A DNA stretch of 64,000 bases from an uncultured Elusimicrobia bacterium (GCA_963702895.1 OY969767.1:2016001-2080000); one strand, 5' to 3'; counted from the stretch's first letter, positions 17,913 through 57,000 are shown. Notes: a model not told the origin generated them from the letters alone. Program-made: numbers and translations.

Positions 17913-18509
17913 ATCAGGTTCAGGGTTCTTCCGGGCTCCGATATGCCGATTCCAGCTGTCCTACCTACACCCAGGGAGGGGATCCGTCCTCTTTCTTGCG
18001 CGAGAGGATTTCTGCCGCCGGTTCGGATGGACGAACCCCCCATCCCCCGTCTGCGACGGGGAGTAAGCACGTCCATCCTTCACCGGCCTGGCAAATCCTA
18101 CGCGCAAATCCAGAGGCCGGATCCCCTTATCCAGAATTCATCAGGTCATCACCCCCGCGGAAGCGAGGATTCATCATGCCGAAAGACGGTCCTTTGTCCA
18201 TACTCGATTTTCCCCGGGAAACTTCAGTTAAACCGATTTGGATTTCTCAGACAAAGCGCCTTGTGATGAATGTCTCAAGGCGCTCTTGCCGAGTGGATCG
18301 GCGATCCAAGGAGACAATGGAATTAGTATTCAAGGCAAGAATGATCAGGTTCAGGATTCTGGAGGGCGACTGTGCGGCTTTAGCGACGAGAGTCGGAACG
18401 TTCTGGATGGCGCCAGACGTCATAAAGCCATCCAGGTCCGACTGAGGAGCGATCCAGCCGCCGCGGCTGGAAAAGGCGCACCGGAGCCCGGAAGAATCCT
18501 GAACCTGAT
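17913..18509. repeat. About 600-bp non-coding element bounded by ~44-bp imperfect inverted repeats
   Basis: ATCAGGTTCAGGGTTCTTCCGGGCTCCG (17913) versus CGGAGCCCGGAAGAATCCTGAACCTGAT (ends 18509); third partial copy at 18344-18360. Confidence 0.75.
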
Positions 18510-18606: not shown

Positions 18607-18975
18607 GGGGCTGAATAGGATCGACAGGGTTAGACGGAGCGGATGGTCGCAAGCCGTGGTTGGTCAGACCCACGTTAAAATCCGGCCAAAAACCAACTGG
18701 CGAACCTGAACTCGCCCTCGCTGCCTAAACCGTAGCGAGTCCGGGGCTTTGCTCCGGCGCTCACCCTCGACCTCGCCTGTGGGCGGGGCGTGAGTGTCAT
18801 GATGCAGGCTAGGCCGCCAAGCGCGCCTTCGCGAAACGGCCGAAACGCAGCAAGGCTGGGCCGGGAGAATGCGGTACGCAGCTACCTCCAGGCCGAGACT
18901 CAAGAGCGCACTAAGCTTGTAGTGACGCCGCCAGGCTGATCTTGGACCCGGGTGCAATTCCCGGCAGCTCCACCA
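18607..18975 (+). ncRNA. ssrA: tmRNA; tag reading frame 18699-18728, (A)GEPELALAA*
   Basis: 5' GGGGCTGAATAGGATCGAC; 3' GACCCGGGTGCAATTCCCGGCAGCTCCACCA; internal tag ending LAA-stop; 369 nt. Confidence 0.95.
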
Positions 18976-18987
18976 GTGGTGATAGAG

Positions 18988-19027
18988 AAAAGGCCCTCGG
19001 TCGTTACAGCGACCGAGGGCCTTCCTT
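18988..19027 (+). terminator. Hairpin terminator after tmRNA
   Basis: AAGGCCCTCGGTCG-TTACAG-CGACCGAGGGCCTT followed by CCTTATT. Confidence 0.65.
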
Positions 19028-19264
19028 ATTGTGCACTGGTGGAGCTGCCTGTCCCCGAAGGTCGCAATTCGTATAGCGACCGGAGTGGGACGGCAGCGAG
19101 ACCGCTATTTACGCTGGTGGAGCTGCCTGTCCCCCGTAGCCTGCTGGCGTCGTGTGCCAGCGCCCAGGCGAAGGGGGGCGGCAGCGAACAGAATGGTTGA
19201 GTGTCAGGTAAAAGCAAAAGTCTTTTTTTCTTACAGACTGTAAGAGATTGGGCAGGCGCGGGTT

Positions 19265-20404
19265 TCATGCGTCTGTGCCTTCGTTGTGAGTCCACTCGAG
19301 AAGTCTCCGTTGCAGGTCTTCTTTGGAGGGCAGGTAGAGCTGGTATCGGGAGGCAAAGATATTGGCGTTCTTCGGTAGCGTCAACCGGACAAGCGCTTCC
19401 TTCTTGCGCTTGCAGAGGAGAATTCCGATGGTGGGGTTTTCGCCGGTTGTTCTGACATGACGGTCAAAATGATTGACATACATCTGCATCTGACCCAGGT
19501 CCTGATGCGTGAGCTTATCGAGCTTTAAATCCACGAGGACATAGCAGCGTAGAAGGCGGTTGTAAAAGACCAAGTCCACGAAAAAATGGTCTTCATCAAA
19601 AGTGAACCGCTTTTGCCGGGCCTCGAACAAAAAACCTTTGCCGAGTTCCAGCAGGAAGTGCTGGAGCTTGTCGATGATGGCGGATTCGAGGTCGCTTTCG
19701 GAATAGGAAGGTTTTTCTTCGAGGCCGAGGAATTCGAGAACAAGGGGTTCTTTCATCAAATCTACGGGACGGCTGACTCTGTGTCCTTCCTCTGCGAGCT
19801 TCCTCATACGTGTTTTGTTTCGGCTGAGGGCAAGGCGTTCGTAGAGACCCGAGCCCAGTTGGCGCTTGAATTCGGGGATCGACCAACCGGATTCCGCGGC
19901 CTCGATCTCGTAGAAGCGGCGCTCTTTCTCGTCTTTGATGCCAAGAAGTGTGACGTAATGCGACCATCCCAAGGTGAAGGGATACGTCAGGACCGAGGGG
20001 TCAGACAGCTTCTGACGTATGAGGTCAGATTTCCTAGAAGGCTTCTCGGAAATGGCGGCGGATTTTTCAGAAGGCTTCTGAAGAATTGGTACGCGATCAC
20101 GCCACAGAAGATAGAACTTGCGCATGTGAGATAGGTTATCTTCAGAAAATCCTCGCCCGAATTCCGATGTCAGGCTGGCAGACAAATGAAGGAGTGTTTC
20201 TGCGCCATAGGCCGCTCGGGCAATGCCCGTCTGCTCGTGCTCCACAATGAGACGGCCGATTTCAAAATTGGTGCGAACCTGCAGGATATTGATGCTGCTG
20301 GCAGCAGCCCGGCGCGCGGCTTGCACCAGAGTGCGGACCCGTTCGATCAGTGGCGAAAGACCGCGGTCGACTCCTGCGACTTTGATGGGTCTGCTTAGCT
20401 CCAT
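19265..20404 (-). CDS. DUF1016/YhcG family PD-(D/E)xK nuclease-domain protein, intact
   Basis: FGRGFS..NL, LGWSHY, RRFYEIEA, LEFLGL, FLLELGKGF, VDLVFYNRLLRCYVLVDLK, GQMQMYVN. Confidence 0.92.
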   Translation of the reverse strand: MELSRPIKVAGVDRGLSPLIERVRTLVQAARRAAASSINILQVRTNFEIGRLIVEHEQTGIARAAYGAETLLHLSASLTSEFGRGFSEDNLSHMRKFYLLWRDRVPILQKPSEKSAAISEKPSRKSDLIRQKLSDPSVLTYPFTLGWSHYVTLLGIKDEKERRFYEIEAAESGWSIPEFKRQLGSGLYERLALSRNKTRMRKLAEEGHRVSRPVDLMKEPLVLEFLGLEEKPSYSESDLESAIIDKLQHFLLELGKGFLFEARQKRFTFDEDHFFVDLVFYNRLLRCYVLVDLKLDKLTHQDLGQMQMYVNHFDRHVRTTGENPTIGILLCKRKKEALVRLTLPKNANIFASRYQLYLPSKEDLQRRLLEWTHNEGTDA

Positions 20405-20652
20405 ATCCCTTAGATGTAAATCTCGGGAGAATATTCACATTAATTTTTTCTCCGTCGGGGGAGCACATGCCGGGTGTTTGGCGAGGTTGAGGGGGTGGCC
20501 CCCTCTCCGCCACTACACCTTGGCGGATTCGCTAAAGCCTCAGTGGCGCAAAGGAGCACCGGAGCGCGCAGACTACCTCTCGGGCTCCGGCTTCAGCACG
20601 AGAAGCCGAAGGCAACCGGAGTGGGGCGGCTCTCCAACACCCATGATAGAGC

Positions 20653-20698
20653 AAAAGCCGGCATATTCTCAAAAGAGGATATGCCGGCTTTCCTTTTT
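20653..20698. terminator. Bidirectional-looking terminator hairpin directly 3' of a tmRNA-end copy (also at 22204-22249 and 23621-23666)
   Basis: AAAAGCCGGCATATTCTC-AAAA-GAGGATATGCCGGCTTT-CCTTTTT. Confidence 0.7.
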
Positions 20699-20942
20699 GT
20701 CGGGTGGTGGAGCTGCCTGTCCCCCGTAGCCTGCTGGCGTCGTGTGCCAGCGCCCAGGCGAAGGGGGGCGGCAGCGACCCCCTGTCGGGTGGTGGAGCTG
20801 CCTGCCCCACGAAGCGCGCTAGCGTTGAAGGGGGGGCAGCCGCAAGCGAGTGCCGGGCGGTTCATCGGCCGGACATTTCTGAAAATTCTCCTTCAAAGAT
20901 TCAACATTTTGCTCGAAGATTTAGCAGCTGGCAGGAGAAATC

Positions 20943-21163
20943 GAGCAGCTTCCTCGAAAAGTGAGCAGGTTGGCCTTCCAAAACGAGCAGCTTCAACTGT
21001 AAAAGTGAGCAGCTTCCTCGAAAAGTGAGCAGCTTGGCCTTCCAAAACGAGCAGCTTCAACTGCAAAAGTGAGCAGCTTCCTCGAAAAGTGAGCAGCTTG
21101 GCCTTCCAGAACGAGCAGCTTCAACTGTAAAAGTGAGCAGCTTCCTCAAAAAGTGAGCAGCTT
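20943..21163. repeat. Tandem 64-bp array (about 3.4 units), each unit made of three GAGCAGCTT-led subunits of 20/22/22 bp
   Basis: Unit starts at 20943, 21007, 21071 and 21135. Confidence 0.92.
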
Positions 21164-21955
21164 TTGCCGGGCCTCGAACAAAAAACCTTTGCCGAGTTCC
21201 AGCAGGAAGTGCTGGAGCTTGTCGATGATGGCGGATTCGAGGTCGCTTTCGGAATAGGAAGGTTTTTCTTCGAGGCCGAGGAATTCGAGAACAAGGGGTT
21301 CTTTCATCAAATCTACGGGACGGCTGACTCTGTGTCCTTCCTCTGCGAGCTTCCTCATACGTGTTTTGTTTCGGCTGAGGGCAAGGCGTTCGTAGAGACC
21401 CGAGCCCAGTTGGCGCTTGAATTCGGGGATCGACCAACCGGATTCCGCGGCCTCGATCTCGTAGAAGCGGCGCTCTTTCTCGTCTTTGATGCCAAGAAGT
21501 GTGACGTAATGCGACCATCCCAAGGTGAAGGGATACGTCAGGACCGAGGGGTCAGACAGCTTCTGACGTATGAGGTCAGATTTCCTAGAAGGCTTCTCGG
21601 AAATGGCGGCGGATTTTTCAGAAGGCTTCTGAAGAATTGGTACGCGATCACGCCACAGAAGATAGAACTTGCGCATGTGAGATAGGTTATCTTCAGAAAA
21701 TCCTCGCCCGAATTCCGATGTCAGGCTGGCAGACAAATGAAGGAGTGTTTCTGCGCCATAGGCCGCTCGGGCAATGCCCGTCTGCTCGTGCTCCACAATG
21801 AGACGGCCGATTTCAAAATTGGTGCGAACCTGCAGGATATTGATGCTGCTGGCAGCAGCCCGGCGCGCGGCTTGCACCAGAGTGCGGACCCGTTCGATCA
21901 GTGGCGAAAGACCGCGGTCGACTCCTGCGACTTTGATGGGTCTGCTTAGCTCCAT
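21146..21955 (-). pseudogene. C-terminally truncated DUF1016 copy 2
   Basis: Identical to copy 1 up to EARQK, then reads into the array (LLTF*); the nuclease catalytic motif is lost. Confidence 0.85.
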
Positions 21956-22493
21956 ATCCCTTAGATGTAAATCTCGGGAGAATATTCACATTAATTTTTT
22001 CTCCGTCGGGGGAGCACATGCCGGGTGTTTGGCGAGGTTGAGGGGGTGGCCCCCTCTCCGCCACTACACCTTGGCGGATTCGCTAAAGCCTCAGTGGCGC
22101 AAAGGAGCACCGGAGCGCGCAGACTACCTCTCGGGCTCCGGCTTCAGCACGAGAAGCCGAAGGCAACCGGAGTGGGGCGGCTCTCCAACACCCATGATAG
22201 AGCAAAAGCCGGCATATTCTCAAAAGAGGATATGCCGGCTTTCCTTTTTGTCGGGTGGTGGAGCTGCCTGTCCCCCGTAGCCTGCTGGCGTCGTGTGCCA
22301 GCGCCCAGGCGAAGGGGGGCGGCAGCGACCCCCTGTCGGGTGGTGGAGCTGCCTGCCCCACGAAGCGCGCTAGCGTTGAAGGGGGGGCAGCCGCAAGCGA
22401 GTGCCGGGCGGTTCATCGGCCGGGCATTTCTGAAAATTCTCCTTCAAAGATTCAACATTTTGCTCGAAGATTTAGCAGCTGGCAGGAGAAATC

Positions 22494-22714
22494 GAGCAGC
22501 TTCCTCGAAAAGTGAGCAGGTTGGCCTTCCAAAACGAGCAGCTTCAACTGTAAAAGTGAGCAGCTTCCTCGAAAAGTGAGCAGCTTGGCCTTCCAAAACG
22601 AGCAGCTTCAACTGCAAAAGTGAGCAGCTTCCTCGAAAAGTGAGCAGCTTGGCCTTCCAGAACGAGCAGCTTCAACTGTAAAAGTGAGCAGCTTCCTCAA
22701 AAAGTGAGCAGCTT
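22494..22714. repeat. Second copy of the 64-bp array
   Basis: Same sequence as 20943-21163, shifted by 1551 bp. Confidence 0.92.
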
Positions 22715-23506
22715 TTGCCGGGCCTCGAACAAAAAGCCTTTGCCGAGTTCCAGCAGGAAGTGCTGGAGCTTGTCGATGATGGCGGATTCGAGGTCGCTTT
22801 CGGAATAGGAAGGTTTTTCTTCGAGGCCGAGGAATTCGAGAACAAGGGGTTCTTTCATCAAATCTACGGGACGGCTGACTCGGTGTCCTTCCTCTGCGAG
22901 CTTCCTCATACGTGTTTTGTTTCGGCTGAGGGCAAGGCGTTCGTAGAGACCCGAGCTCAGTTGGCGCTTGAATTCGGGGATCGACCAATCAGATTCCGCG
23001 GCCTCGATCTCGTAGAAGCGGCGCTCTTTTTCGTCTTCGATGCCAAGAAGCGTGACGTAATGCGACCATCCCAAGGTGAAGGGATACGACAGGACCGATG
23101 GGTCAGACGGCTTCTGACGAATGAGGTCAGATTTCCTAGAAGGCTTCTCGGAAATGGCGGCGGATTTTTCAGAAGGCTTCTGAAGAATTGGTACGCGATC
23201 CCGCCACAAAAGATAGAACTTGCGCATATGGGACAGGTTTACCGCGGAGAATCCCCTCCCGAACTCCGCTGTCAGGCTGGCAGACAAATGAAGGAGTGTT
23301 TCTGCGCCATAGGCCGCTCGGGCAATGCCCGTCTGCTCGTTCTCCACAATGAGACGGCCGATTTCAAAATTGGTGCGAACCTGCAGGAGATTGATGCTGC
23401 TGGCAGCAGCCCGGCGCGCGGCTTGCACCAGAGTGCGAACCCGTTCGATCAGTGGCGAAAGACCGCGGTCGACTCCTGCGACTTTGATGGGTCTGCTTAG
23501 CTCCAT
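22697..23506 (-). pseudogene. C-terminally truncated, slightly diverged DUF1016 copy 3
   Basis: Same truncation (RQKLLTF*) with substitutions such as SAVN for SEDN, IED for IKD and SDW for SGW. Confidence 0.85.
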
Positions 23507-23794
23507 ATCCCTTAGATGCAAAACTCGGGAGAATATTCACATTAATTTTTTCTCCGTCGGGGGAGCACATGCCGGGTGTTTGGCGGGGTTGAGGGGGTGT
23601 CCCCCTCTCCGCGATAGAGCAAAAGCCGGCATATTCTCGTATGAGGATATGCCGGCTTTTCTTTTTGTCGGGTGGTGGAGCTGCCTGTCCCTCAACGCGC
23701 GACGAGCGCGATCGAGATACAACAGCCGTGAAACGAGAGCGTGGAGAGGCGGAATCTCCTGTTTTCGAGAGGGAACGTTACCGAGTGCCTCGAC

Positions 23795-24166
23795 TCATTC
23801 GCCGAGTACGGATGCAGGACAACGATAGACCGTACCTGTTAGTGTGACATTCGTTTGTGACGAATGTCCCGTACCTTCATTGACAGAGCCCGTTTGTCCA
23901 GCACGGTTGGTGAGCAGGACGATGACATTCCCACCCATTTCGGTTGCTTTATTTTTAAGACGATTACGAGCACCAGTTTCTAAATTAGCATTGCTCGTCC
24001 AGGGCCCTGTGAAGAAATTCCCCTGGTTGCCAGTGGCTTCGCCAAGATACTTGCATCCCTTAGGTTCTGATTGCAGAAAACGCACCGTCTGCGCTTCTGG
24101 TTTCAAGGGAACCGCTGCACATCCAGAAAGAACCGCGATCACCGACAGAATTAGGAATGCCCTCAT
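23795..24166 (-). CDS. DUF4156-like lipoprotein
   Basis: Lipobox LSGC; GCKYLG, ARNRLKNKATEMGGN and C-terminal YRC; AGGAGG ribosome-binding site. Confidence 0.8.
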   Translation of the reverse strand: MRAFLILSVIAVLSGCAAVPLKPEAQTVRFLQSEPKGCKYLGEATGNQGNFFTGPWTSNANLETGARNRLKNKATEMGGNVIVLLTNRAGQTGSVNEGTGHSSQTNVTLTGTVYRCPASVLGE

Positions 24167-24360
24167 AAAAATCCTCCTTAGGACTTGAACCTGTAAACTT
24201 CAGCTCCGCATACGAATCAGTGCGACGTTAGCAAACTTATGAACTACGGTCTAGATGTAAGTCAAAGCCACACATGTGCCCGGCAGGCCCTCGCCTTCGG
24301 ATTCGTCACTGAAAAGAAGAAGCCCCGTGTGTGCCCGCGCCCGCCACTACAACGCGGCGG

Positions 24361-24443
24361 GCGTCCGCCCCGAGCACGCTTCGCGTGTAGGGGCAGCCCT
24401 AACAGCTCGCTTCAGCGAGCTGTCCGGGCGCCAACGCTGGAGT
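24361..24443. repeat. 83-bp palindromic direct repeat, copy 1 (copy 2 at 26331-26413)
   Basis: GCGTCCGCCCCGA..ACGCTTCGCGTGTAGGGGCAGCCCTAACAGCTCGCTTCAGCGAGCTGTCCGGGCGCCAACGCTGGAGT at both sites. Confidence 0.9.
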
Positions 24444-24595
24444 CCTTGGTTAGACGATTTTAGAACTTGCCTAGTCCGTGGGCCTCCGATGGCCATTGCA
24501 GAGAAAGCTTTTCCTGGAGCGACGCTTGTTGAAACAGATTAAAGCGTGCTATTGAGAGCGGGTGGGAAGAAATCCATTAGAACACCGATCTTTAA

Positions 24596-25852
24596 TCATT
24601 CAACCGTCACAACCTTCCACAACAGTTCCTGCCCCTTCATCGCGCCGTAAGCCAACGTCTTGCCATCCGGGCTAAAAGTGAGGCTTCCCACCCAATCAAA
24701 GGGCGCAAGTTTTCTTTCATTCACCACCACATGATGTTGTCCCGTCTTCTTATCTTCAGCTATGTAGGCAAGCTGCTTGCCATCCGAGCTATAAACGAGG
24801 TCCCTCGTGGCGTCGCATTCCTTCCCTTCTTTGCCGTTTGCAACAACAACAACTCTTCCTTTCCGCTTCGCCGCATAGGCGATCTCTTTGCTGTCCGGAC
24901 TAAAAACGTAGGATGCCAAATAATTATCATAGGTTTCCAATATCATATCGTCGACAACAAGACAGGGTTTTGCCTTCATCACGAGGTATGCGATGCGTTT
25001 CCCGTCGGGAGAGAAAAGAGGGTGGAAAACATTTGTAAAACTCTTCCCGGGCCTCCCATCGCGCACCATGAAACATTCGCCTTTGGCTCTGCAGGCCGGA
25101 TAGGCCACGTGTTGACCATCGGGACTGAAGCCAATGAAGGAGACGTCATAAAAAGCCTCTCCTCTCTGATTATTGATCACAGCAAACCAGAGTCCTTTCT
25201 CCTTTGCTGTATACGCTGTTGTCCTGCCGTCCGGACTGAACCGATAGCCTTTAACGGCGTCGAACCCTCCGCTTCGTTTCCCGTCCAATACGAGAAACCA
25301 GCGCGGGCCCTTTTTGGCTGGATATGCCAAACGGGTGCCGTCCGGACTGAAAAAGGGGTCACCTACTTCATCGAAAGCTTCTTGCGGTTTCTCATTAACA
25401 ACGACGAACCAATGACGACCCTTCCTGGCCGTATAAGCCAGTCTCGTGCCATCCGGACTGAAAATGGGGTCACCTACTTCATCGAAAGCTTCTTGCGGTT
25501 TCTCATTAACAACGACGAACCGATGACGACCCTTCCTGGCCGTATAAGCCAGTCTCGTGCCATCCGGGCTGAACACGGTGCCGTGTCCAGCCTTCACGAA
25601 ACCGCCCTTCCGCTCACCAATAAAGACGATCTGGTTATCAAGGGCATCCCATCCGCGCCTCCAGGCCTCCGATGCATGGCATGCCACGTGTTTCCCATCA
25701 GGAGTAAATACTGGCCAAAGAGCGACATAGTCGGACGGGATAGTAGCCAAGAGCCTCTCCTGATATAGACTTTCTTCAAGCCCAAACACTCCCGAGCAAG
25801 AGACAAAGATCAGGGCCGACGTAAGCAATGTGCTTTTCATTGGTATCCTCAT
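24596..25852 (-). CDS. Secreted TolB/PD40-like beta-propeller protein
   Basis: Signal peptide; about nine FSPDG..LAY repeats at ~37-aa spacing, two of them nearly identical. Confidence 0.85.
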   Translation of the reverse strand: MRIPMKSTLLTSALIFVSCSGVFGLEESLYQERLLATIPSDYVALWPVFTPDGKHVACHASEAWRRGWDALDNQIVFIGERKGGFVKAGHGTVFSPDGTRLAYTARKGRHRFVVVNEKPQEAFDEVGDPIFSPDGTRLAYTARKGRHWFVVVNEKPQEAFDEVGDPFFSPDGTRLAYPAKKGPRWFLVLDGKRSGGFDAVKGYRFSPDGRTTAYTAKEKGLWFAVINNQRGEAFYDVSFIGFSPDGQHVAYPACRAKGECFMVRDGRPGKSFTNVFHPLFSPDGKRIAYLVMKAKPCLVVDDMILETYDNYLASYVFSPDSKEIAYAAKRKGRVVVVANGKEGKECDATRDLVYSSDGKQLAYIAEDKKTGQHHVVVNERKLAPFDWVGSLTFSPDGKTLAYGAMKGQELLWKVVTVE

Positions 25853-25889
25853 TTCGACGTTTGATCCATCAAGCGACTTTCAATTACCC

Positions 25890-26156
25890 TTAAAGACGCG
25901 GAAACAAACGATTTTCCAGCCATGAGATAGCATAATAAAGAATGAAAACATTCGTTATATGGCCGAGGGAGAGCAGCGATAGCAGTATTGAATCTGAAAA
26001 ATGGATGGGAATTACAACGAGCAAATAAGGCCATGGCCAAGCAAGAAAGAAAAGACATATGTCTGCCAAAAGGTCTAAGTAGCCCCGCGATAACCATATG
26101 ATCAGTGTCACGAGAGCATACACACAGGTGATGCCAACGGCAAAGATTGATCTCAT
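25890..26156 (-). CDS. Small hydrophobic membrane protein
   Basis: 88 aa, about three hydrophobic segments, AT-rich DNA, same orientation as its neighbours. Confidence 0.5.
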   Translation of the reverse strand: MRSIFAVGITCVYALVTLIIWLSRGYLDLLADICLFFLAWPWPYLLVVIPIHFSDSILLSLLSLGHITNVFILYYAISWLENRLFPRL

Positions 26157-26407
26157 GTCTCAAATCACATTCAGCGAGCCAGTGCTCGCTCGGGGAGTTC
26201 CCTTTACGCCATACTCCAGGTTACGTGTGAGATGGTGAAAGCTGGAGTGGCGGACGGGATTTCCCGCCACTGAGTCTTCGTCCGCCACTACGGCTTAGGC
26301 GGATCCGCCAACGTCTTAGTGGCGGAGAGGGCGTCCGCCCCGACGACGCTTCGCGTGTAGGGGCAGCCCTAACAGCTCGCTTCAGCGAGCTGTCCGGGCG
26401 CCAACGC

Positions 26408-26774
26408 TGGAGTGGCGGACGGGATTTGAAGCGAGTGGCGAATGTGCCCGGCGGGATTTGAACTCGCGACCTTCCGCCAGAAGTCTGGCGGACGCTCTAT
26501 CCTGGGAAATAAGTCACCCCTGTGCCCGGCGGGATTTGAACTCGCGACCTCTTCCTTCGCAGGGAAGCGCTCTATCCAGCTGAGCTACGGGCACAGGGGT
26601 GACTCGAATCAACTTACCGCTGAGCTACGGGCACATTCGCCACTCGATGATCCGCGACCTGTCGCCAGATCCGACACACTTCAGTCGGACCCGCCTGCTT
26701 TGTGGCGGGCGTCTGGCGACCGCTCTATCCAGCTGCCTGCCCGCCAACGTCGTAGTGGCGGGAGCTACGGGCAC
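26408..26774 (-). pseudogene. Two interrupted tRNA-Arg-derived copies (26443-26634 and 26408-26774) surrounding the intact tRNA
   Basis: The segments GGGATTTGAA, CGCGACCT, CGCTCTATCC and AGCTACGGGCAC each occur three times in nested order. Confidence 0.8.
26521..26594 (-). tRNA. tRNA-Arg, anticodon GCG (CCA not encoded)
   Basis: GTGCCCGTAGCTCAGCTGGATAGAGCG-CTTCC-CTGCGAA-GGAAG-AGGTC-GCGAG-TTCAAAT-CCCGC-CGGGCAC-A folds as a cloverleaf with one T-stem mismatch. Confidence 0.9.
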
Positions 26775-26798
26775 ACTAACCGCAAATCTTCTATTGAC

Positions 26799-41891: not shown

Positions 41892-42458
41892 TTACAGTGC
41901 CGATCCAGTGAAGCGCACCGTGATTTCACGTGCGGTCTGCGCGCTGACTGCGCTCGGCATCGCCAGCTTGAACCACAGGCTCACGTTCGGCGTCGCTCCG
42001 CCTGAAGTCGTGATGGTGGGATCTCCACCGCCCAAGCCCTTCAAGCCGTTGGCTCCGGTCCCGTTGAACAGGTGGTCCGCGTCAACGAAGTCCCCTGTCG
42101 CAGGGCGTGCCGCCGCTGTCGCCACGTAGAGCGCGTACTTGTTCAGCGCTACTGCCGGCGAGCCGATCGTCGCGGCCGTCCAGCCCGCGGGACTTGACTC
42201 GGTCTGGATGTTCTTCTGGACGGTCACGTCCACACTGCCCGAGTTCGACAGCGTGATGGCTGTCGCCGCCACAGACGACGTATTGACGGTGAGCGGCCCG
42301 TAGGCGTAGGTGGTCGGTGACAAGGTCAAGTCCACCGTCGCCACGGGTGTCACCGTGATCGTGCCGTCTACGGGGTTGGCGGCTTGCGCCGTCCCCAGTC
42401 CCAACAACCCAATGCCCAACATCCCAAGCACAACCTTCCATCTTGTTCTGGTGTTCAT
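41892..42458 (-). CDS. Secreted pilin-like subunit 5
   Basis: 188 aa, AQA signal cleavage site, AAGGAGG ribosome-binding site; 754-bp tandem unit. Confidence 0.88.
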   Translation of the reverse strand: MNTRTRWKVVLGMLGIGLLGLGTAQAANPVDGTITVTPVATVDLTLSPTTYAYGPLTVNTSSVAATAITLSNSGSVDVTVQKNIQTESSPAGWTAATIGSPAVALNKYALYVATAAARPATGDFVDADHLFNGTGANGLKGLGGGDPTITTSGGATPNVSLWFKLAMPSAVSAQTAREITVRFTGSAL

Positions 42459-42645
42459 GTGTGTAGACCCTCCTTAAAGGTCGTTTGTCTGTTCGTCCTT
42501 GATGTCATCCCGGCGGTCCGTTCGCCATTCCTCCTGCCCACAAGGGACGGTCCCTCCCCTTGGAGCTTCCAGGACGGCAGCCGAGACCCGTGGCGTTCAT
42601 AAGCGCCACAGACATCCCGATAACGTCTCGGGGATGACGGTCTCT

Positions 42646-43212
42646 TTACAGTGCCGATCCAGTGAAGCGCACCGTGATTTCACGTGCGGTCTGCGCGCTG
42701 ACTGCGCTCGGCATCGCCAGCTTGAACCACAGGCTCACGTTCGGCGTCGCTCCGCCTGAAGTCGTGATGGTGGGATCTCCACCGCCCAAGCCCTTCAAGC
42801 CGTTGGCTCCGGTCCCGTTGAACAGGTGGTCCGCGTCAACGAAGTCCCCTGTCGCAGGGCGTGCCGCCGCTGTCGCCACGTAGAGCGCGTACTTGTTCAG
42901 CGCTACTGCCGGCGAGCCGATCGTCGCGGCCGTCCAGCCCGCGGGACTTGACTCGGTCTGGATGTTCTTCTGGACGGTCACGTCCACACTGCCCGAGTTC
43001 GACAGCGTGATGGCTGTCGCCGCCACAGACGACGTATTGACGGTGAGCGGCCCGTAGGCGTAGGTGGTCGGTGACAAGGTCAAGTCCACCGTCGCCACGG
43101 GTGTCACCGTGATCGTGCCGTCTACGGGGTTGGCGGCTTGCGCCGTCCCCAGTCCCAACAACCCAATGCCCAACATCCCAAGCACAACCTTCCATCTTGT
43201 TCTGGTGTTCAT
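42646..43212 (-). CDS. Secreted pilin-like subunit 4 (protein identical to subunit 5)
   Basis: Same translation as 41892-42458. Confidence 0.88.
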   Translation of the reverse strand: MNTRTRWKVVLGMLGIGLLGLGTAQAANPVDGTITVTPVATVDLTLSPTTYAYGPLTVNTSSVAATAITLSNSGSVDVTVQKNIQTESSPAGWTAATIGSPAVALNKYALYVATAAARPATGDFVDADHLFNGTGANGLKGLGGGDPTITTSGGATPNVSLWFKLAMPSAVSAQTAREITVRFTGSAL

Positions 43213-43399
43213 GTGTGTAGACCCTCCTTAAAGGTCGTTTGTCTGTTCGTCCTTGATGTCATCCCGGCGGTCCGTTCGCCATTCCTCCTGCCCACAAGGG
43301 ACGGTCCCTCCCCTTGGAGCTTCCAGGACGGCAGCCGAGACCCGTGGCGTTCATAAGCGCCACAGACATCCCGATAACGTCTCGGGGATGACGGTCTCT

Positions 43400-43966
43400 T
43401 TACAGTGCCGATCCAGTGAAGCGCACCGTGATTTCACGTGCCGTCTGCGCGCTGACCGCGCTCGGCATGTTCAGCTTGAACCACAGGCTCACGTTCGGCG
43501 TCGCTCCGCCTGAAGTCGTGATGGTGGGATCTCCACCGCCCAAGCCCTTCAAGCCGTTGGCTCCGGTCCCGTTGAACAGGTGGTCCGCGTCAACGAAGTC
43601 CCCTGTCGCAGGGCGTGCCGCCGCTGTCGCCACGTAGAGCGCGTACTTGTTCAGCGCTACCGCCGGCGAGCCGATCGTCGCGGCTGTCCAGCCCGCGGGA
43701 CTTGACTCGGTCTGGATCCTCTTCGTGCAGGTCACGTCCACACTGCCCGAGTTCGACAGCGTGATGGCTGTCGCCGCCACAGACGACGTATTGACGGTGA
43801 GCGGCCCGTAGGCGTAGGTGGTCGGTGACAAGGTCAAGTCCACCGTCGCCACGGGTGTCACCGTGATCGTGCCGTCTACGGGGTTGGCCGCCTGCGCCGT
43901 CCCCAGTCCCAACAACCCAATGCCCAACATCCCAAGCACAACCTTCCATCTTGTTCTGGTGTTCAT
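43400..43966 (-). CDS. Secreted pilin-like subunit 3
   Basis: Variant carrying CTKR and LNMP. Confidence 0.88.
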   Translation of the reverse strand: MNTRTRWKVVLGMLGIGLLGLGTAQAANPVDGTITVTPVATVDLTLSPTTYAYGPLTVNTSSVAATAITLSNSGSVDVTCTKRIQTESSPAGWTAATIGSPAVALNKYALYVATAAARPATGDFVDADHLFNGTGANGLKGLGGGDPTITTSGGATPNVSLWFKLNMPSAVSAQTAREITVRFTGSAL

Positions 43967-44153
43967 GTGTGTAGACCCTCCTTAAAGGTCGTTTGTCTGT
44001 TCGTCCTCGATGTCATCCCGGCGGTCCGTTCGCCATTCCTCCTGCCCACAAGGGACGGTCCCTCCCCTTGCAGCGTCCAGGACGGCAGCCGAGACCCGTG
44101 GCGTTCATAAGCGCCACAGACATCCCGATAACGTCTCGGGGATGACGGTCTCT

Positions 44154-44720
44154 TTACAGTGCCGATCCAGTGAAGCGCACCGTGATTTCGCGTGCCGTCT
44201 GCGCGCTGACCGCGCTCGGCATCGCCAGCTTGAACCACAGGCTCACGTTCGGCGTCGCTCCGCCTGAAGTCGTGATGGTGGGATCTCCACCGCCCAAGCC
44301 CTTCAAGCCGTTGGCTCCGGTCCCGTTGAACAGGTGGTCCGCGTCAACGAAGTCCCCTGTCGCAGGGCGTGCCGCCGCTGTCGCCACGTAGAGCGCGTAC
44401 TTGTTCAGCGCTACCGCCGGCGAGCCGATCGTCGCGGCTGTCCAGCCCGCGGGACTTGACTCGGTCTGGATCCTCTTCGTGCAGGTCACGTCCACACTGC
44501 CCGAGTTCGACAGCGTGATGGCTGTCGCCGCCACAGACGACGTATTGACGGTGAGCGGCCCGTAGGCGTAGGTGGTCGGTGACAAGGTCAAGTCCACCGT
44601 CGCCACGGGTGTCACCGTGATCGTGCCGTCTACGGGGTTGGCCGCCTGCGCCGTCCCCAGTCCCAACAACCCAATGCCCAACATCCCAAGCACAACCTTC
44701 CATCTTGTTCTGGTGTTCAT
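44154..44720 (-). CDS. Secreted pilin-like subunit 2
   Basis: Variant carrying CTKR and LAMP. Confidence 0.88.
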   Translation of the reverse strand: MNTRTRWKVVLGMLGIGLLGLGTAQAANPVDGTITVTPVATVDLTLSPTTYAYGPLTVNTSSVAATAITLSNSGSVDVTCTKRIQTESSPAGWTAATIGSPAVALNKYALYVATAAARPATGDFVDADHLFNGTGANGLKGLGGGDPTITTSGGATPNVSLWFKLAMPSAVSAQTAREITVRFTGSAL

Positions 44721-54000: not shown

Positions 54001-57000
54001 TCCGGAAGTCCGGGTGAGGCCGCCTCGAAACACGATCCCGGTGCTGGCGCCGCTGAGCGTTCCGCCGCTCACCGTGACCAGTCCCGCGAAGAGTTTTGAG
54101 CCTGTGTCGCTGGTGAGCGATACCGTTCCCCCTGAGAGCGTCGAAGCCCCTGTCACCCAGAACTGAAACGCGCCGGTGGTGAGCGTGCCGCCGGAAGCAA
54201 GAATCCCGCCATTGACCGTTACGGATGAGCCCAGCGTCCAGGCGGCGGTCCCGCCCATTTCGATATTCCCTAAGATCGGAGACGTAAAGGTGGTGCAAGT
54301 CTTGACGCCGCTGCCTCCGAAGGCGAGGTTGTAGTACTGGATATTCCTGCAGGTCTGGATGCCGGCGAAATTGTAGCGGACGGTGTTGCCACTGGCATTC
54401 GCTGTCAGCGTCGTGATTCCGGGCGTGCCGGTGAAGTTGAGGTTGAGCGTGCCGCCGGCGGCGTTGGTGAACCCACCTGTTCCGTTGAGCGCGGTGTTGA
54501 CCGTAATCGTGCCTTGGTTGGTGAGCGTGGTTCCCGTAATCGTCAAGGTGGCCAGGTTGAGACTGGCGGTGTTCGTGTAGGCGGTGGTGAACGTGGGGCT
54601 GCCAAAGTCTGTGGCGCCCGCTGTGCCGCTGATGGTGCCCCCACCCACCTTGGCAAAGGCCGGCAGGAACGTCGTGTCGGCAGCGCCGGAGGTCGTGCCG
54701 TTCATCACCAGATCAGCATTGATCGCGACCGTTTCAGCCGCCGTCACATTCAAGTCGCCATCCACGGTGAGTGTGCCGTTAAAGGTCTTGGAGCCGGTGG
54801 TGTTGGAGATTCGCAGCACTCCGCCGCTATTGACCGTAACCGCATCATTAAAAACAACGGTGCCGGTGTCGGTGTTGAGTATTCCACCGTTTCCGACCGT
54901 CACGGTCCCATTAAACGTTTTGTTGCCCGTCGCGTTGGTGAGGGTCAAGGTCCCCGAAAGAGACGTGGGACCGTAGACCGTGAAATTGTACCCTGCAGTG
55001 GTTAATGATCCCGTGATCGTAAGGCCGGCCATGGAGAGGTGGCTGGTCGGCACGGGCATCACCAAGGCCGTTGACACAATCAGCACGTAATCATCCGTAC
55101 TGGGAACACCCGATTCCCAGTTCGAAGGGTTCCACCAATTGGTATCGACCGTCCCCCACCAGGTTCGTGTTTGCCCCCCGCTACCGAAATACCAGTTATA
55201 GTTGTTCCCTGAATTCTGGCTGCCTCCGTCATTGGCTTGTATGATAGACCCGGCGCGGGCATCGGAGTCCCGCACGTCGACATACGTGATGGAATTCGTC
55301 CCCGTATTATTCAAATACCAGTTGGTGTCATCGACTGTAGACCGGAGCCATATCTTTTTGCCGCTGGCGCCTGCCAGAGACAGGGTCGTGATGGTAAAAG
55401 TTGAATTCGCATTAAAGTAGACCGTCGTTTCGTTCGCCAAGTCGGCGCGGTTGATCATGAGTTTGGTGGCGGTGAAGCTCGAAGCAAACGTCACACCGCC
55501 GCTGGAGGTGTTCGAATCAATCAAGACCCAGAAGGGCAGGCCGGCATTCGTGATGGTTTGGGCCGAGGAGCCCGTCAGGGCCACGGTACTCCGGTTGACC
55601 GTAAAGGCCCCGCTGTTGAGCTGCATGTCGCCGCCCAAATCCACCCGGTAGGAATTGGCGTTGGTGTTCATGGTCCCACCGCTAATGATGAAATCACCGT
55701 CAATCGCGATATCGGAACCCAGCGTCCACACCATACTTCCCCCCAGCGTGAGGTTCCCCACAATGGGAGAGGTAAAGGTGGTGCAGGTCTTAGTACCGCT
55801 GCCAGTCATACGGAGGTTGTAATATTGAGCGTTCTTGCACGTTTGGTTGCCGCCCAGGGCATAGTTCACCGTGTTGGAACTGGCGGAGAAATTGACGGTG
55901 GTCACCGCCATGGCGTTGGTCGTGGCGCCGCTGGCGTTCAGGACAGAATCCAACCCTTGCGTCCAAGACCCGCCGCCGGTCAAGGTGCTCGAGGCGTTGA
56001 CCGTGCCGTTGTTCGTCACAGACCCCGTCACCGTGAAGACGCCCGGGGTCGTGAGCGTCCCGTTGTTGGTGAGCGTGATGCCGGCTGCTACGGTGAGCGT
56101 CGTGATGCTCATGGTACCGCTGAGCGCTTGGTTGTTCGTGTTGAAGGTGGCCGTACCAGTGATGGCGACGCTTCCGGAAGTCCGGGTGAGGCCGCCGCGA
56201 AAGACGATCAGGGCGCTGGCGCCGCTCAGCGTCCCTCCACTCACTGTAACCAAGCCGACCATGACTTTCGACCCTGTGTCGCTGGTGAGCGATACCGTTC
56301 CCCCTGAGAGTGTCGAAGCCCCTGTCACCCAGAACTGAAACGCGCCGGTGGTGAGCGTGCCGCCGGAGGCAAGAATCCCGCCATTGACCGTCACCGAAGA
56401 AGCTAAGGTCCAGGCGGCGGTCCCTCCCATTTCGATATTCCCTAAGATCGGTGAGGTAAAGGTGGTGCAGGTCTTAGTACCGCTGCCAGTCATACGGAGG
56501 TTGTAATATTGAGCGTTCTTGCACGTTTGGTTGCCGCCCAGGGCATAGTTCACCGTGTTGGAACTGGCGGAGAAATTGACGGTGGTCACCGCCATGGCGT
56601 TGGTCGTGGCGCCGCTGGCGTTCAGGACAGAATCCAACCCTTGCGTCCAAGACCCGCCGCCGGTCAAGGTGCTCGAGGTGTTGACCGTGCCGTTGTTCGT
56701 CACAGACCCCGTCACCGTGAAGACGCCCGGGGTCGTGAGCGTCCCGTTGTTGGTGAGCGTGATGCCGGCTGCTACGGTGAGCGTCGTGATGCTCATGGTA
56801 CCGCTGAGCGCTTGGTTGTTCGTGTTGAAGGTCGCCGTGCCGGTGATCGACACGCTCCCCGAAGTCCGGGTGAGGCCGCCCCGAAAGACGATCGCTGTGC
56901 TGGCGCCGCTCAATGTGCCGCCGCTCACCGTGACCAGTCCCGCGAAGAGTTTTGAGCCTGTGTCGCTGGTGAGCGATACCGTTCCCCCTGAGAGCGTCGA

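Follow-up and report, generated by a model that had tools for sequence, protein, structure and literature searches.

The 3′ flank of the tmRNA gene (ssrA) in an uncultured Elusimicrobia bacterium contains a hairpin module in which the last 13 nt of the gene recur in inverted orientation. This inverted-tail hairpin belongs to the ssrA flank as a standing feature, and it is a conserved ssrA companion in this bacterial family that has apparently gone undescribed so far. Beyond it lies an insertion hotspot that extends to a tRNA-Arg gene. The best available explanation, which we hold at slightly less than even confidence, is that the ssrA end underwent small inverted triplications and that cargo was then stacked beside them by ordinary recombination. 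The 7.5-kb interval is an integrase-free site of gene flux between two conserved stable-RNA genes. The window is the whole stretch analysed, 64,000 nt at 2,016–2,080 kb of a 2.72-Mb genome; its features are listed in Table 1.

Table 1. Features of the ssrA/tRNA-Arg interval (positions within the window)
Feature	Position	Strand	Basis or remark
ssrA (tmRNA gene)	18607–18975	+	ARAGORN; Rfam RF00023, 133.5 bits
Terminator hairpin 1, 15 pairs	18990–19023		Between tail and first inverted tail
Unit A: inverted tail and bulged hairpin closing on GGCAGC	19037–19099	+	Match search, repeats, unit alignment
Unit B copy 1, 73 nt	19115–19187	+	Repeats, unit alignment
Full-length DUF1016_N + YhcG PDDEXK nuclease gene, 379 aa	19265–20404	-	PF17761 7.6e-36, PF06250 9.4e-53
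1,551-bp tandem repeat, 2.6 copies	19591–23612		Repeat analysis
Small GC hairpin repeats, A-like unit relic, decayed direct tail	20491–20644		Repeats
Terminator hairpin 2, paralogue of ssrA terminator module	20654–20691		Duplicate at 22205–22242
Unit B copy 2 (20705–20777) and unit C copy 1 (20790–20842)	20705–20842	+	
Iteron array, 64-nt repeats, each three ~21-nt iterons	20874–21163		Core GAGCAGCTT
Truncated DUF1016 copy b	21146–21955	-	Pfam profile search
Unit B copy 3 and unit C copy 2	22256–22393	+	Then second iteron array
Second iteron array	22425–22714		After unit C copy 2
Truncated DUF1016 copy c	22697–23521	-	Protein 95% identical to full copy
Terminator hairpin 3 (23621–23660) and unit D (23673–23729)	23621–23729	+	
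DUF4156 protein gene, 123 aa	23795–24166	-	Pfam PF13698 2.8e-28
85-nt hairpin-rich direct repeat, left copy	24359–24443	+	98% identical to 26329–26413
Propeller block: PD40 beta-propeller gene (24596–25852) and 104-aa ORF (25849–26163)	24596–26163	-	
85-nt direct repeat, right copy	26329–26413	+	Flanked by 20-mer at 26243 and 26408
tRNA-Arg(GCG) nested in older tRNA-Arg remains	26443–26647	-	ARAGORN and repeat analysis
tRNA-Arg(GCG)	26520–26595	-	ARAGORN; 9-nt complementary flanks

As a preliminary description of this DNA stated, ssrA and tRNA-Arg converge. The tmRNA tag is GEPELALAA, and the final 13 nt of ssrA, GGCAGCTCCACCA, are called the tail here. The intact tRNA-Arg(GCG) is enclosed by fragments of an older, broken copy (26619–26647, 5′ part; 26443–26500, 3′ part) with 11-nt complementary flanks. 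Real tRNA-Arg debris consists of 26619–26647 and 26443–26472, the latter a 30-nt perfect copy of the tRNA-Arg 3′ part. Other proposed remnants of stable-RNA 3′ ends fared less well. The one at 24275 is weak, a 13-mer with one mismatch of a type found at six sites (3.9 expected) when up to two mismatches are allowed. The 20-mer TGGAGTGGCGGACGGGATTT is indeed present exactly twice, at 26243 and 26408 (0.01 expected), but it matches none of the 3′ ends of the 48 ARAGORN tRNAs in this genome.

The tail has eight exact matches in the window, the real one on the plus strand and seven on the minus strand, where shuffles lead one to expect 0.09 in all. A genome-wide search returned the same eight and none elsewhere, so the seven inverted copies first described stand and belong to this locus only. 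They fall into four unit types: A (19037), B (19115, 20705 and 22256), C (20790 and 22341) and D (23673). The three copies of unit B are 100% identical, and four of the seven inverted tails (20705, 20790, 22256 and 22341) are borne on the 1,551-bp tandem repeat; most copies thus derive from a recent duplication within the locus. The seven copies are therefore not independent events, and the supposed series of independent att sites owes its periodicity mostly to one tandem duplication. Strong terminator hairpins abut inverted tails at four places (18990–19023, 20654–20691, 22205–22242 and 23621–23660) rather than three, and every strong terminator in the interval adjoins a unit. The first has an A-rich upstream and a T-rich downstream side.

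The units share a plan of GCTGCC, one bulged base, a variable stem and GGCAGC. This was seen in 13 of 18 extracted units, with one further unit fitting the GCTGCC...GGCAGC arrangement on full reading, and perfect inverted tails occur in 13 of the 16 distinct units. Ahead of the GCTGCC arm lies the complement of the tmRNA CCA end. Unit A forms a perfect 16-nt inverted repeat with 18963–18978, and unit D combines an intact inverted tail with a weak closing stem. All seven copies share one orientation, as do all copies in other lineages. No forward tail besides that of ssrA was found in the window at up to one mismatch, or inside the island at up to three. The only direct trace is a decayed tail (8/13) in the second module of the window, four nt ahead of that module's own GATAGAG-terminator and at the homologous spot; this module also has its own trailer/flank complement, and an A-like unit relic lies nearby at 20612–20630.

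Several known types of repeat were considered and rejected. REP, BIME or REPIN repeats do not fit, as the unit motif, like the 13-mer, is confined to this locus genome-wide and a search for RAYT (Y1) transposases gave one weak 89-aa Y1_Tnp fragment (23.3 bits). A shufflon-type invertible switch was dismissed on the single orientation of all seven copies and the lack of a recombinase. A classic tRNA/tmRNA island would have an integrase and a direct repeat of the gene end at its far boundary, neither of which was found here.

The called cargo genes all lie on the minus strand, as first described, and always beyond the tail-derived hairpin modules. The 1,551-bp repeat carries the DUF1016 nuclease module; its copies 1 and 2 are 99.6% identical, and copy 3 is 95.9–97.5% identical with 134 nt missing. 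At the repeat junction an iteron is joined to a 19-nt look-alike (14/19) within the DUF1016 gene, and in copy b the nuclease domain ends at profile position 53 of 157 and reads into iterons. The genome has the same iterons at another place, behind tRNA-Val(CAC). Two cargo blocks lie between direct repeats of hairpin modules: the 73-bp unit B brackets the DUF1016 module, and the 85-bp repeat brackets the propeller pair. Units follow the DUF1016 copies and DUF4156; neither the propeller gene nor the small gene next to it is followed by one. The 104-aa ORF had no family match in a Pfam profile search, and no orthologue of the propeller-block genes was found in 30 relatives.

Gene content between the same flanks differs among relatives: the interval measures 175 nt in G009 and about 290 nt in G010, and it holds 7.7 kb of unrelated genes in G007. 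The segment studied here is absent from these relatives, and synteny breaks at the RNA gene, as it would for an island integrated at a tRNA or tmRNA gene. Cargo across loci comes as modules of one or two genes (Fic, PIN with antitoxin, ORF6N, ImmA/IrrE with XRE, DUF1016). Iteron arrays with small DNA-binding genes lie beside units here, in G005 and behind tRNA-Val. The interval is free of integrases, as had been claimed. None was found among the scanned ORFs (13 in the window, 12 at relatives' ssrA loci, 23 at metagenome loci, and 2 more at another locus of this genome), and the genome's recombinases all lie outside the window. Tyrosine recombinases (PF00589) occur at four places, 368, 694, 1,327 and 2,517 kb, two of them Xer-like and two other; the one serine recombinase, a large one, is at 373 kb.

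In this Elusimicrobiota family, 10 lineages have the module directly behind ssrA, cargo or no cargo, in the order tail, terminator hairpin, inverted tail and second hairpin closing on GGCAGC. In all 10 the inverted tail lies 58–69 nt from the tail, with one long hairpin between. Their complementarity enters the lineage-specific trailer by 0–7 nt (4, 5, 0, 7, 1, 3, 3, 4, 5 and 4 nt, ten values that cover five distinct sequence types). It extends toward the gene body in none of the 10 lineages; thus, the inverted tail runs up to a natural hairpin and ends two bases into the T-stem. The top consensus fold is the tail:inverted-tail helix, which covaries, and among the close relatives L156, L159 and L163 the apical hairpins differ and the basal stems covary. 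Even the cargo-free G009 locus has the inverted-tail hairpin, with an almost complete direct tail as its right arm. The module accompanies ssrA in either orientation of tRNA-Arg, which varies among relatives. Its distribution is patchy: within the family it was found in 4 of 11 genomes, and outside it, at 5 ssrA loci of the class that belong to other families, it was not found.

The direct-inverted-direct zigzag may be a small inverted triplication of the short segment that lies between the T-arm and the terminator, both natural hairpins of the gene, and it may have arisen when replication snapped back or switched template. Remodelling would have followed, through deletions and through rapid turnover of small hairpin repeats at the tips of the hairpins. 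In the module, the terminator hairpin is bidirectional and the second hairpin closes on the tail's first six letters. Such a palindromic array would be recombination-prone, and cargo could pile up beside it. Circles sharing a unit may enter by Campbell-type insertion, and cargo may also change by unequal crossing-over and by exchange that uses the conserved ssrA and tRNA-Arg flanks as anchors. At this locus, a 1.59-kb DUF1016 module probably came in at unit B, and a 1,551-bp piece was later amplified via the 19-nt iteron/gene look-alike. We infer, then, a replication error as the origin of the module and recombination, not a dedicated enzyme, as the mover of cargo. The confinement of the copies to one locus, the bracketed cargo, the microhomology junction and the failure to find an integrase are consistent with this account, as are the direct-tail arm in G009, the relic in the second module and the covarying basal stems.

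Other observations sit less easily with triplication and ordinary recombination. The 13-nt inverted tail is still perfect in all four unit types and the sole internal direct tail is decayed, a pattern not predicted by a purely neutral history. Across 10 lineages the base of the hairpin, including its bulged T, looks similar, which suggests constraint or a protein site. The copy boundaries of unit B fall exactly at unit ends, as expected of a discrete mobile or recombining entity, and the interior of the second hairpin is unlike the T-arm past the outer two base pairs.

In a rival that we consider possible but less probable, the mirrored module is a recombination site and a recombinase encoded elsewhere inserts integrase-less cassettes of cargo plus unit. 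Folded in single-stranded DNA, either the tail with its inverted copy or the bulged hairpin would mimic the ssrA end, by the same logic as CTX-phage attP or integron attC sites; the modules themselves may be protein-less, gene-restoring insertion elements. The short spacing of two inverted target copies with covarying flanks would suit such a site, as would a conserved bulged base and closing stem around a variable interior, the many perfect inverted tails and the exact end-to-end duplication of unit B around the DUF1016 module. Patchiness within the family and the small cargo modules, typical of cassette arrays, point the same way. However, no candidate enzyme lies near any examined locus, the recombinases of this genome are all distant, and the scanned cargo of the window, relatives and metagenome loci contains no replication-initiator or phage gene. 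A simple exchange of hairpin by real tail would yield direct copies, not inverted ones, and the 73–85-nt direct repeats are equally a product of homologous recombination.

Integron arrays have co-oriented small cargo, each cassette comprising a gene and a site, and attC sites are imperfect hairpins whose ends are conserved, whose middles vary and which contain an unpaired base. The locus resembles them in its co-oriented small cargo and imperfect bulged hairpins with conserved ends, and the bracketing by 73- and 85-bp repeats is cassette-like, yet nothing integron-specific is present. No IntI-type recombinase was found near the array or among the 13 local ORFs, there is no attI, and the units lack attC-type cores, their conserved arms being GCTGCC/GGCAGC. 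Some genes have no unit after them, and an inverted RNA gene closes the array. The integron-like platform acted on in trans that was first proposed is supported in part: the interval is integrase-free, its content differs among relatives and two cargo blocks are bracketed, but no integron features were found. CTX-phage attP consists of two inverted dif-like sites that fold in single-stranded DNA and are used by XerC/D. The restored target followed by an inverted copy about 60–90 nt on is similar here, and two inverted target copies with a short spacer are present in all 10 lineages; in the phage, however, the target is dif and the enzymes are XerC/D, and no single-strand replicon genes occur here. 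A stronger version, which we think rather unlikely, gives ssrA of this family a standing platform for gene capture that has no integrase gene of its own. In single-stranded DNA, tail and inverted tail would form a duplex that copies the end of the tmRNA gene, and a host recombinase would insert small gene-plus-hairpin cassettes there in trans. If true, integron attC or CTX-phage attP recombination would have an independent counterpart anchored in an RNA gene.

The inverted tail could instead act in RNA, by pairing with the tmRNA 3′ end in read-through precursors and guiding their processing, or the units could stabilise or terminate the minus-strand cargo mRNAs. The covarying tail:inverted-tail helix and the unit beside every strong terminator would agree with this, as would leader-trailer complements of at least 8 nt at 13 of 48 tRNAs (a raw count without a shuffle baseline, taken from the first trailer base and at most 7 nt from the gene 5′ end). 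With so patchy a distribution, though, the module cannot be needed for tmRNA maturation. On the tmRNA strand the terminator precedes the inverted tail, the cargo strand has no 5′ acceptor partner for a tRNA-like fold, and Rfam yields no match at gathering score. The RNA-processing punctuation suggested earlier is therefore very improbable. A further rival has ordinary decayed ssrA-integrating islands whose direct att repeats were flipped by one later inversion, an idea that fits the iteron arrays and small DNA-binding genes, typical of integrative-element ends, and the variable orientation of ssrA against tRNA-Arg. Nonetheless, in 10 of 10 lineages the inverted tail sits at the same place and points the same way with respect to ssrA, regardless of the direction of tRNA-Arg, and it is present at the cargo-free G009 locus. 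No integrase remnant appeared in the scanned ORFs of the window, relatives and metagenome loci, and this history is very improbable.

Bacterial tandem inversion duplications produce direct-inverted-direct copies with hairpin-repeat junctions and deletion remodelling. For ODIRA, the part of PMC4689423 used here documents inverted triplications with short interrupted inverted repeats at their boundaries. The ssrA module resembles both in copy order, small hairpin-forming junctions and later deletion remodelling; by those accounts, as far as drawn on here, the amplicons are kilobase-scale and under selection, whereas a 13–19-nt RNA-gene piece is kept here across genera. Integrase-free horizontal-transfer hotspots with high gene turnover, conserved flanks, no recognisable mobile-element genes and flank recombination (PMC5635113, in the sections consulted) resemble this interval, but target-derived mirrored hairpins are absent from that portion of the description.

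In Dehalococcoides, as excerpted from PMC3146451, islands are stacked downstream of a single-copy ssrA and delimited by copies of its 3′ end, each beside a conserved non-ssrA motif, and some members are thought fixed or cis-mobilised. Both loci thus stack elements by ssrA with 3′-end copies. The Dehalococcoides repeats described there are 20-bp direct repeats from the T-loop with a serine recombinase (DsiB) module, whereas here they are 13-nt inverted repeats from the T-stem, inside hairpins, with no recombinase. Prochlorococcus tycheposon islands, in the extracts used of bioRxiv 10.1101/2020.12.28.424599, adjoin tRNA/tmRNA genes; older elements are displaced outward as newer ones arrive, and the islands contain scattered partial tRNAs and degenerate remnants. 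Unlike this locus, tycheposons are described in those extracts with tyrosine recombinases, replication genes and direct partial tRNAs left behind.

Tail arrays also occur at tRNA genes of this genome. A direct array of tail plus trailer trails tRNA-Val(GAC), with six copies at a 120-nt period, and another trails tRNA-Gln(CTG), with six copies at an 82-nt period. These tRNA-linked arrays are head-to-tail direct copies; those of ssrA are inverted instead.

The usual explanation for hotspots beside tRNA and tmRNA genes is an integrase, which leaves direct repeats. The constant feature of the hotspot in the window is a conserved, covarying hairpin module derived from a backwards tmRNA gene end, with no integrase. 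The tmRNA gene (ssrA) and tRNA-Arg(GCG) are spaced 7,544 nt apart, and all called genes between them are on the minus strand. Gene content varies among relatives, and the interval is an insertion relative to these kin, which agrees with the cassette-like array seen in a preliminary description. Among genomes of the same Elusimicrobiota family, the two RNA genes converge across 175 nt in G009, with the same flanking genes, and are ∼290 nt apart in G010. G007 has a 7.7-kb interval of unrelated minus-strand genes (peroxiredoxin, ZnuA, ABC-3 permease, CHAP protein, response regulator and ORF6N protein), and in G004 tRNA-Arg and ssrA share a strand, with tRNA-Arg 15 nt upstream. No orthologue of the propeller gene was found in 30 relatives (best match, 38% identity over 129 residues), and DUF1016 is a patchy multi-copy family with a best non-self identity of 56%. 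The orientation of ssrA against tRNA-Arg and the flanking glutamine-amidotransferase/cyclase genes also varies between the window and loci L029 (G004), L156 and L157, as if ssrA alone had inverted. A 98-nt copy, 87% identical, of positions 18404-18501, just upstream of the ssrA promoter, lies ∼252 kb further on in the genome.

Features of the interval between ssrA and tRNA-Arg(GCG), in window positions
Feature	Position	Strand	Remarks
tmRNA gene (ssrA)	18607-18975	+	
Unit A	19037		
Unit B	19115, 20705, 22256		73 nt, 100% identical; limits of identity are the exact unit ends
Full DUF1016_N/YhcG PDDEXK nuclease gene	19265-20404	-	
Unit C	20790, 22341		
Iteron arrays	20874-21163, 22425-22714		∼21-nt iterons, core GAGCAGCTT, three per 64-nt repeat
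Two DUF1016 gene copies	21146-21955, 22697-23521	-	nuclease domain truncated
Unit D	23673		
DUF4156 gene	23795-24166	-	
PD40 beta-propeller gene	24596-25852	-	
104-aa ORF	25849-26163	-	no family match
tRNA-Arg(GCG)	26520-26595	-	convergent with the tmRNA gene

The last 13 nt of ssrA (the tail) occur in the window once forward and seven times inverted, against 0.09 expected, and are absent elsewhere in the 2.72-Mb single-contig genome. The seven inverted tails counted earlier are real but overstate the number of events: they open four hairpin types (units A-D), and four of them (20705, 20790, 22256 and 22341) are accounted for by a 1,551-bp tandem repeat present in 2.6 copies. Copies 1 (19591-21199) and 2 (21141-22750) have 99.6% identity; copy 3 matches copy 1 at 95.9% over 921 nt, then lacks 134 nt, then matches over 79 nt at 95%. 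At the repeat junction, an iteron array ends directly against a 19-nt stretch within the DUF1016 gene in which 14 of 19 letters agree with the iteron. Strong hairpins, led by A-rich and trailed by T-rich sequence, stand at 18990, 20654, 22205 and 23621, each with one of the seven inverted tails immediately after it. Iterons with the GAGCAGCTT core also occur behind tRNA-Val(CAC) (genome ∼1,394,558-1,394,720; L164:6559-6721), where they follow a plugged tail stub and adjoin a 286-aa ORF that ends in a MarR-type winged helix. At the same relative place in G005, another set of iterons (TGTTTTCA) accompanies an 80-aa HTH gene. One DNA sequencing run (share, 0.08) gave 13 short contig pieces, with no joints and no repeat bridged. 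Elsewhere in the window, long tandem repeats appear as regularly spaced near-matches at ∼41.7-45.0 kb and 49-58.6 kb; those with periods of 754 nt (42018-44280) and 684 nt (55872-58608) probably sit inside large genes.

In each unit, the tail complement is followed by a single unpaired base (T in most cases), a stem-loop that varies and finally GGCAGC, the first six tail letters in direct orientation, mostly with a G after them. This fold, closed by GGCAGC, was found in 13 of 18 extracted units and, on full reading, in the first unit of locus L158; unit D and G005's second unit type do not close. At the 3′ end of ssrA, the tail, a terminator hairpin, an inverted tail and a second hairpin make up a mirrored module, in which the tail, first terminator and first inverted tail form a long interrupted palindrome with perfect outer arms of 16 nt. 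Modules 2 (20.6 kb) and 3 (23.6 kb) are paralogous to this flank of ssrA and have in common with it a GATAGAG box, hairpin flanks, a T-tract and an inverted tail. Module 2 also retains a decayed direct tail (8/13) at the homologous place, four nt upstream of GATAGAG; as read from the alignment, 13 of the 17 letters in this relic and its four-nt spacer complement the inverted tail and flank of the same module. The arrangement can therefore be read as a zigzag of tail, hairpin, inverted tail, hairpin and tail, partly collapsed by deletions. A tRNA-like minihelix on the cargo strand was excluded, as no unit has a 5′ acceptor-strand partner upstream. Rfam searches at E up to 1 gave only sub-threshold matches: tmRNA_permuted for the tail with inverted tail (27.7 bits; gathering score, 47), His_leader, YrlA and others. 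A degenerate unit pattern run against genome contigs returned at least 120 matches in unrelated high-GC phyla, which were discarded as chance.

The mirrored module lies behind ssrA in 4 of 11 family genomes (the window's own, G002, G005 and G009, the last with one or two mismatches in the inverted tail). It was not found behind ssrA of G001, G003, G004, G006, G007, G008 or G010, nor at five ssrA loci in the class's other families. A role at the RNA level, akin to the RNA-processing punctuation considered earlier, is most unlikely because the module is so patchy within the family. A metagenome scan for a tail, 45-75 nt and an inverted tail returned eight loci: six further lineages, a duplicate of G005 (L160) and a chance match within a coding region (L162), which was excluded. 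Tail and inverted tail are separated by 58-69 nt in each of the 10 lineages, with a single hairpin of 14-18 bp in between. Complementarity continues into the lineage-specific trailer for 4, 5, 0, 7, 1, 3, 3, 4, 5 and 4 nt, involving five different sequence types, and never extends towards the gene body. The consensus fold selects the tail/inverted-tail helix, with compensatory changes. The module is oriented alike to ssrA regardless of tRNA-Arg, be the latter convergent, upstream (L156, G004) or downstream in the same direction (L157), and it is present at the cargo-free G009 locus, where its right arm is an almost complete direct tail. Both observations speak against classical islands turned round by inversion, to which we give a very slight chance. 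In G003, of the same genus, what follows the tmRNA gene end is another repeat of ∼165 nt, present twice (L034 1736-2080), in which the last six tmRNA letters plus ten trailer letters recur as a 16-nt inverted copy. The design is again mirrored, in a different sequence.

The interval is integrase-free, as first described. No tyrosine or serine recombinase was found among scanned ORFs above ∼80-110 aa (13 in the window, 12 at relatives' ssrA loci and 23 at metagenome loci), and none of about ten related loci holds an integrase. The genome's recombinases (four tyrosine, one large serine and one weak Y1 fragment) are all far from the window. As to the integron-like platform proposed initially, integron membership is unsupported, although cargo shows cassette-like bracketing. 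An attC-like exchange between a unit hairpin and the real tail, worked through on paper, predicts direct copies and is excluded in its simple form; a shufflon-type switch is excluded by the single orientation of all copies.

The inverted tail ends two bases inside the T-stem, and the other junction is the terminator; the direct-inverted-direct segment is therefore the piece between the gene's two natural hairpins. Bacterial tandem inversion duplications have the same direct-inverted-direct pattern and are then remodelled by deletion. The module would match an inverted triplication between the two natural hairpins of ssrA, with deletions remodelling it later. Inverted triplications that form at short interrupted inverted repeats, with subsequent remodelling by deletion, are described in an excerpt of one study (PMC4689423). 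Cargo may then have built up between the two highly conserved anchors, by ordinary recombination at a fragile site rich in repeats, as an excerpt on integrase-free hotspots describes (PMC5635113). Inverted triplication with such stacking is the account that we tentatively favour, at a little under an even chance. The conserved mirrored module is the interesting part of the locus. The interior of the second hairpin turns over quickly: in the close relatives L156, L159 and L163, the tips differ on a common covarying basal stem. Such turnover fits small hairpin repeats that settle in the tips of hairpins and in the T-loops of tRNA tails that have been discarded; plugged tRNA tails of this kind were observed.

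Three observations count against a replication-error origin and favour a site in use, with an enzyme acting in trans on the folded or duplex unit. Inverted tails are perfect in all four unit types, and the one internal direct tail is decayed; the bulged hairpin base is alike in ten lineages; and unit B was copied exactly, end to end. We regard a site of this kind as possible but rather unlikely. As only a replication-error scar, the module would imply that an RNA gene's two natural hairpins can seed a fragile, recombination-prone site that collects defence-type genes; as a recombination site, it would represent a new way of gene capture. Either reading provides a signature (tail, ∼60 nt, inverted tail) that can be searched for behind every tmRNA gene.

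Cargo adjoining modules is small and defence-like or addiction-like: Fic with a small HTH gene in G005, ImmA/IrrE with XRE in L156, PIN with an AbrB/MazE-type antitoxin and then a transposase fragment in L158, ORF6N, read from sequence, in L159 and L163, and an ORF of no known type with a histidine kinase in L157. In the window, identical B units flank the DUF1016 module on both sides, and an 85-nt hairpin-rich repeat, 98% identical, brackets the propeller pair; in G005, a similar tandem repeat (∼2.05 kb) likewise begins at a unit. These arrangements are cassette-like, although repeats of 73-85 nt are equally left by homologous recombination. Under the triplication and stacking account, a 1,590-bp circle carrying cargo and one ssrA-type module and recombining within B would give exactly the B-bracketed DUF1016 arrangement. 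Upstream of ssrA in G005 (L031 2700-3700, a record interrupted by runs of N), ORFs of 87 and 105 aa resemble, by eye, a Phd/YefM-RelE/ParE toxin-antitoxin pair and are bracketed by a duplicated ssrA promoter region with the first 32 nt of tmRNA.

The nearest described system, as far as the excerpted source goes, is the ssrA island stack of Dehalococcoides, with 20-bp direct repeats starting in the T-loop and a serine recombinase module in each island (PMC3146451). Tycheposons, which an excerpt describes as building islands at tRNA and tmRNA genes (bioRxiv 10.1101/2020.12.28.424599), are also close. Place and stacking are common to both and to the window locus, which is set apart from what these excerpts describe by its orientation, hairpin context and lack of a recombinase. 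A limited literature search, which is no proof of absence, turned up no account of inverted copies of the tail behind ssrA.

Within 26443-26790 (minus strand), the working tRNA-Arg, with 9-nt complementary flanks, is nested in the D-loop of an older copy in which a small hairpin replaces the anticodon loop and the complementary flanks are 11 nt long. A third, more decayed copy (∼26650-26790) has hairpins in its D- and anticodon loops, and G007 has a similar layout, with 17-nt arms 177 nt apart. Behind many tRNA genes of the window's genome lie tandem copies, in direct orientation, of the gene's 3′ end and trailer (for example, genome 1,171,096-1,171,769 and 2,455,062-2,455,544), with six copies at 120 nt for tRNA-Val(GAC) and six at 82 nt for tRNA-Gln(CTG), where a two-hairpin insert splits the T-loop. 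Leader-trailer complements of at least 8 nt (up to 15), starting at the first trailer base and no more than 7 nt from the gene's 5′ end, occur at 13 of its 48 tRNA genes, a count made without a shuffle control. One tRNA-Glu has a complement of 21 nt that starts further from the gene.
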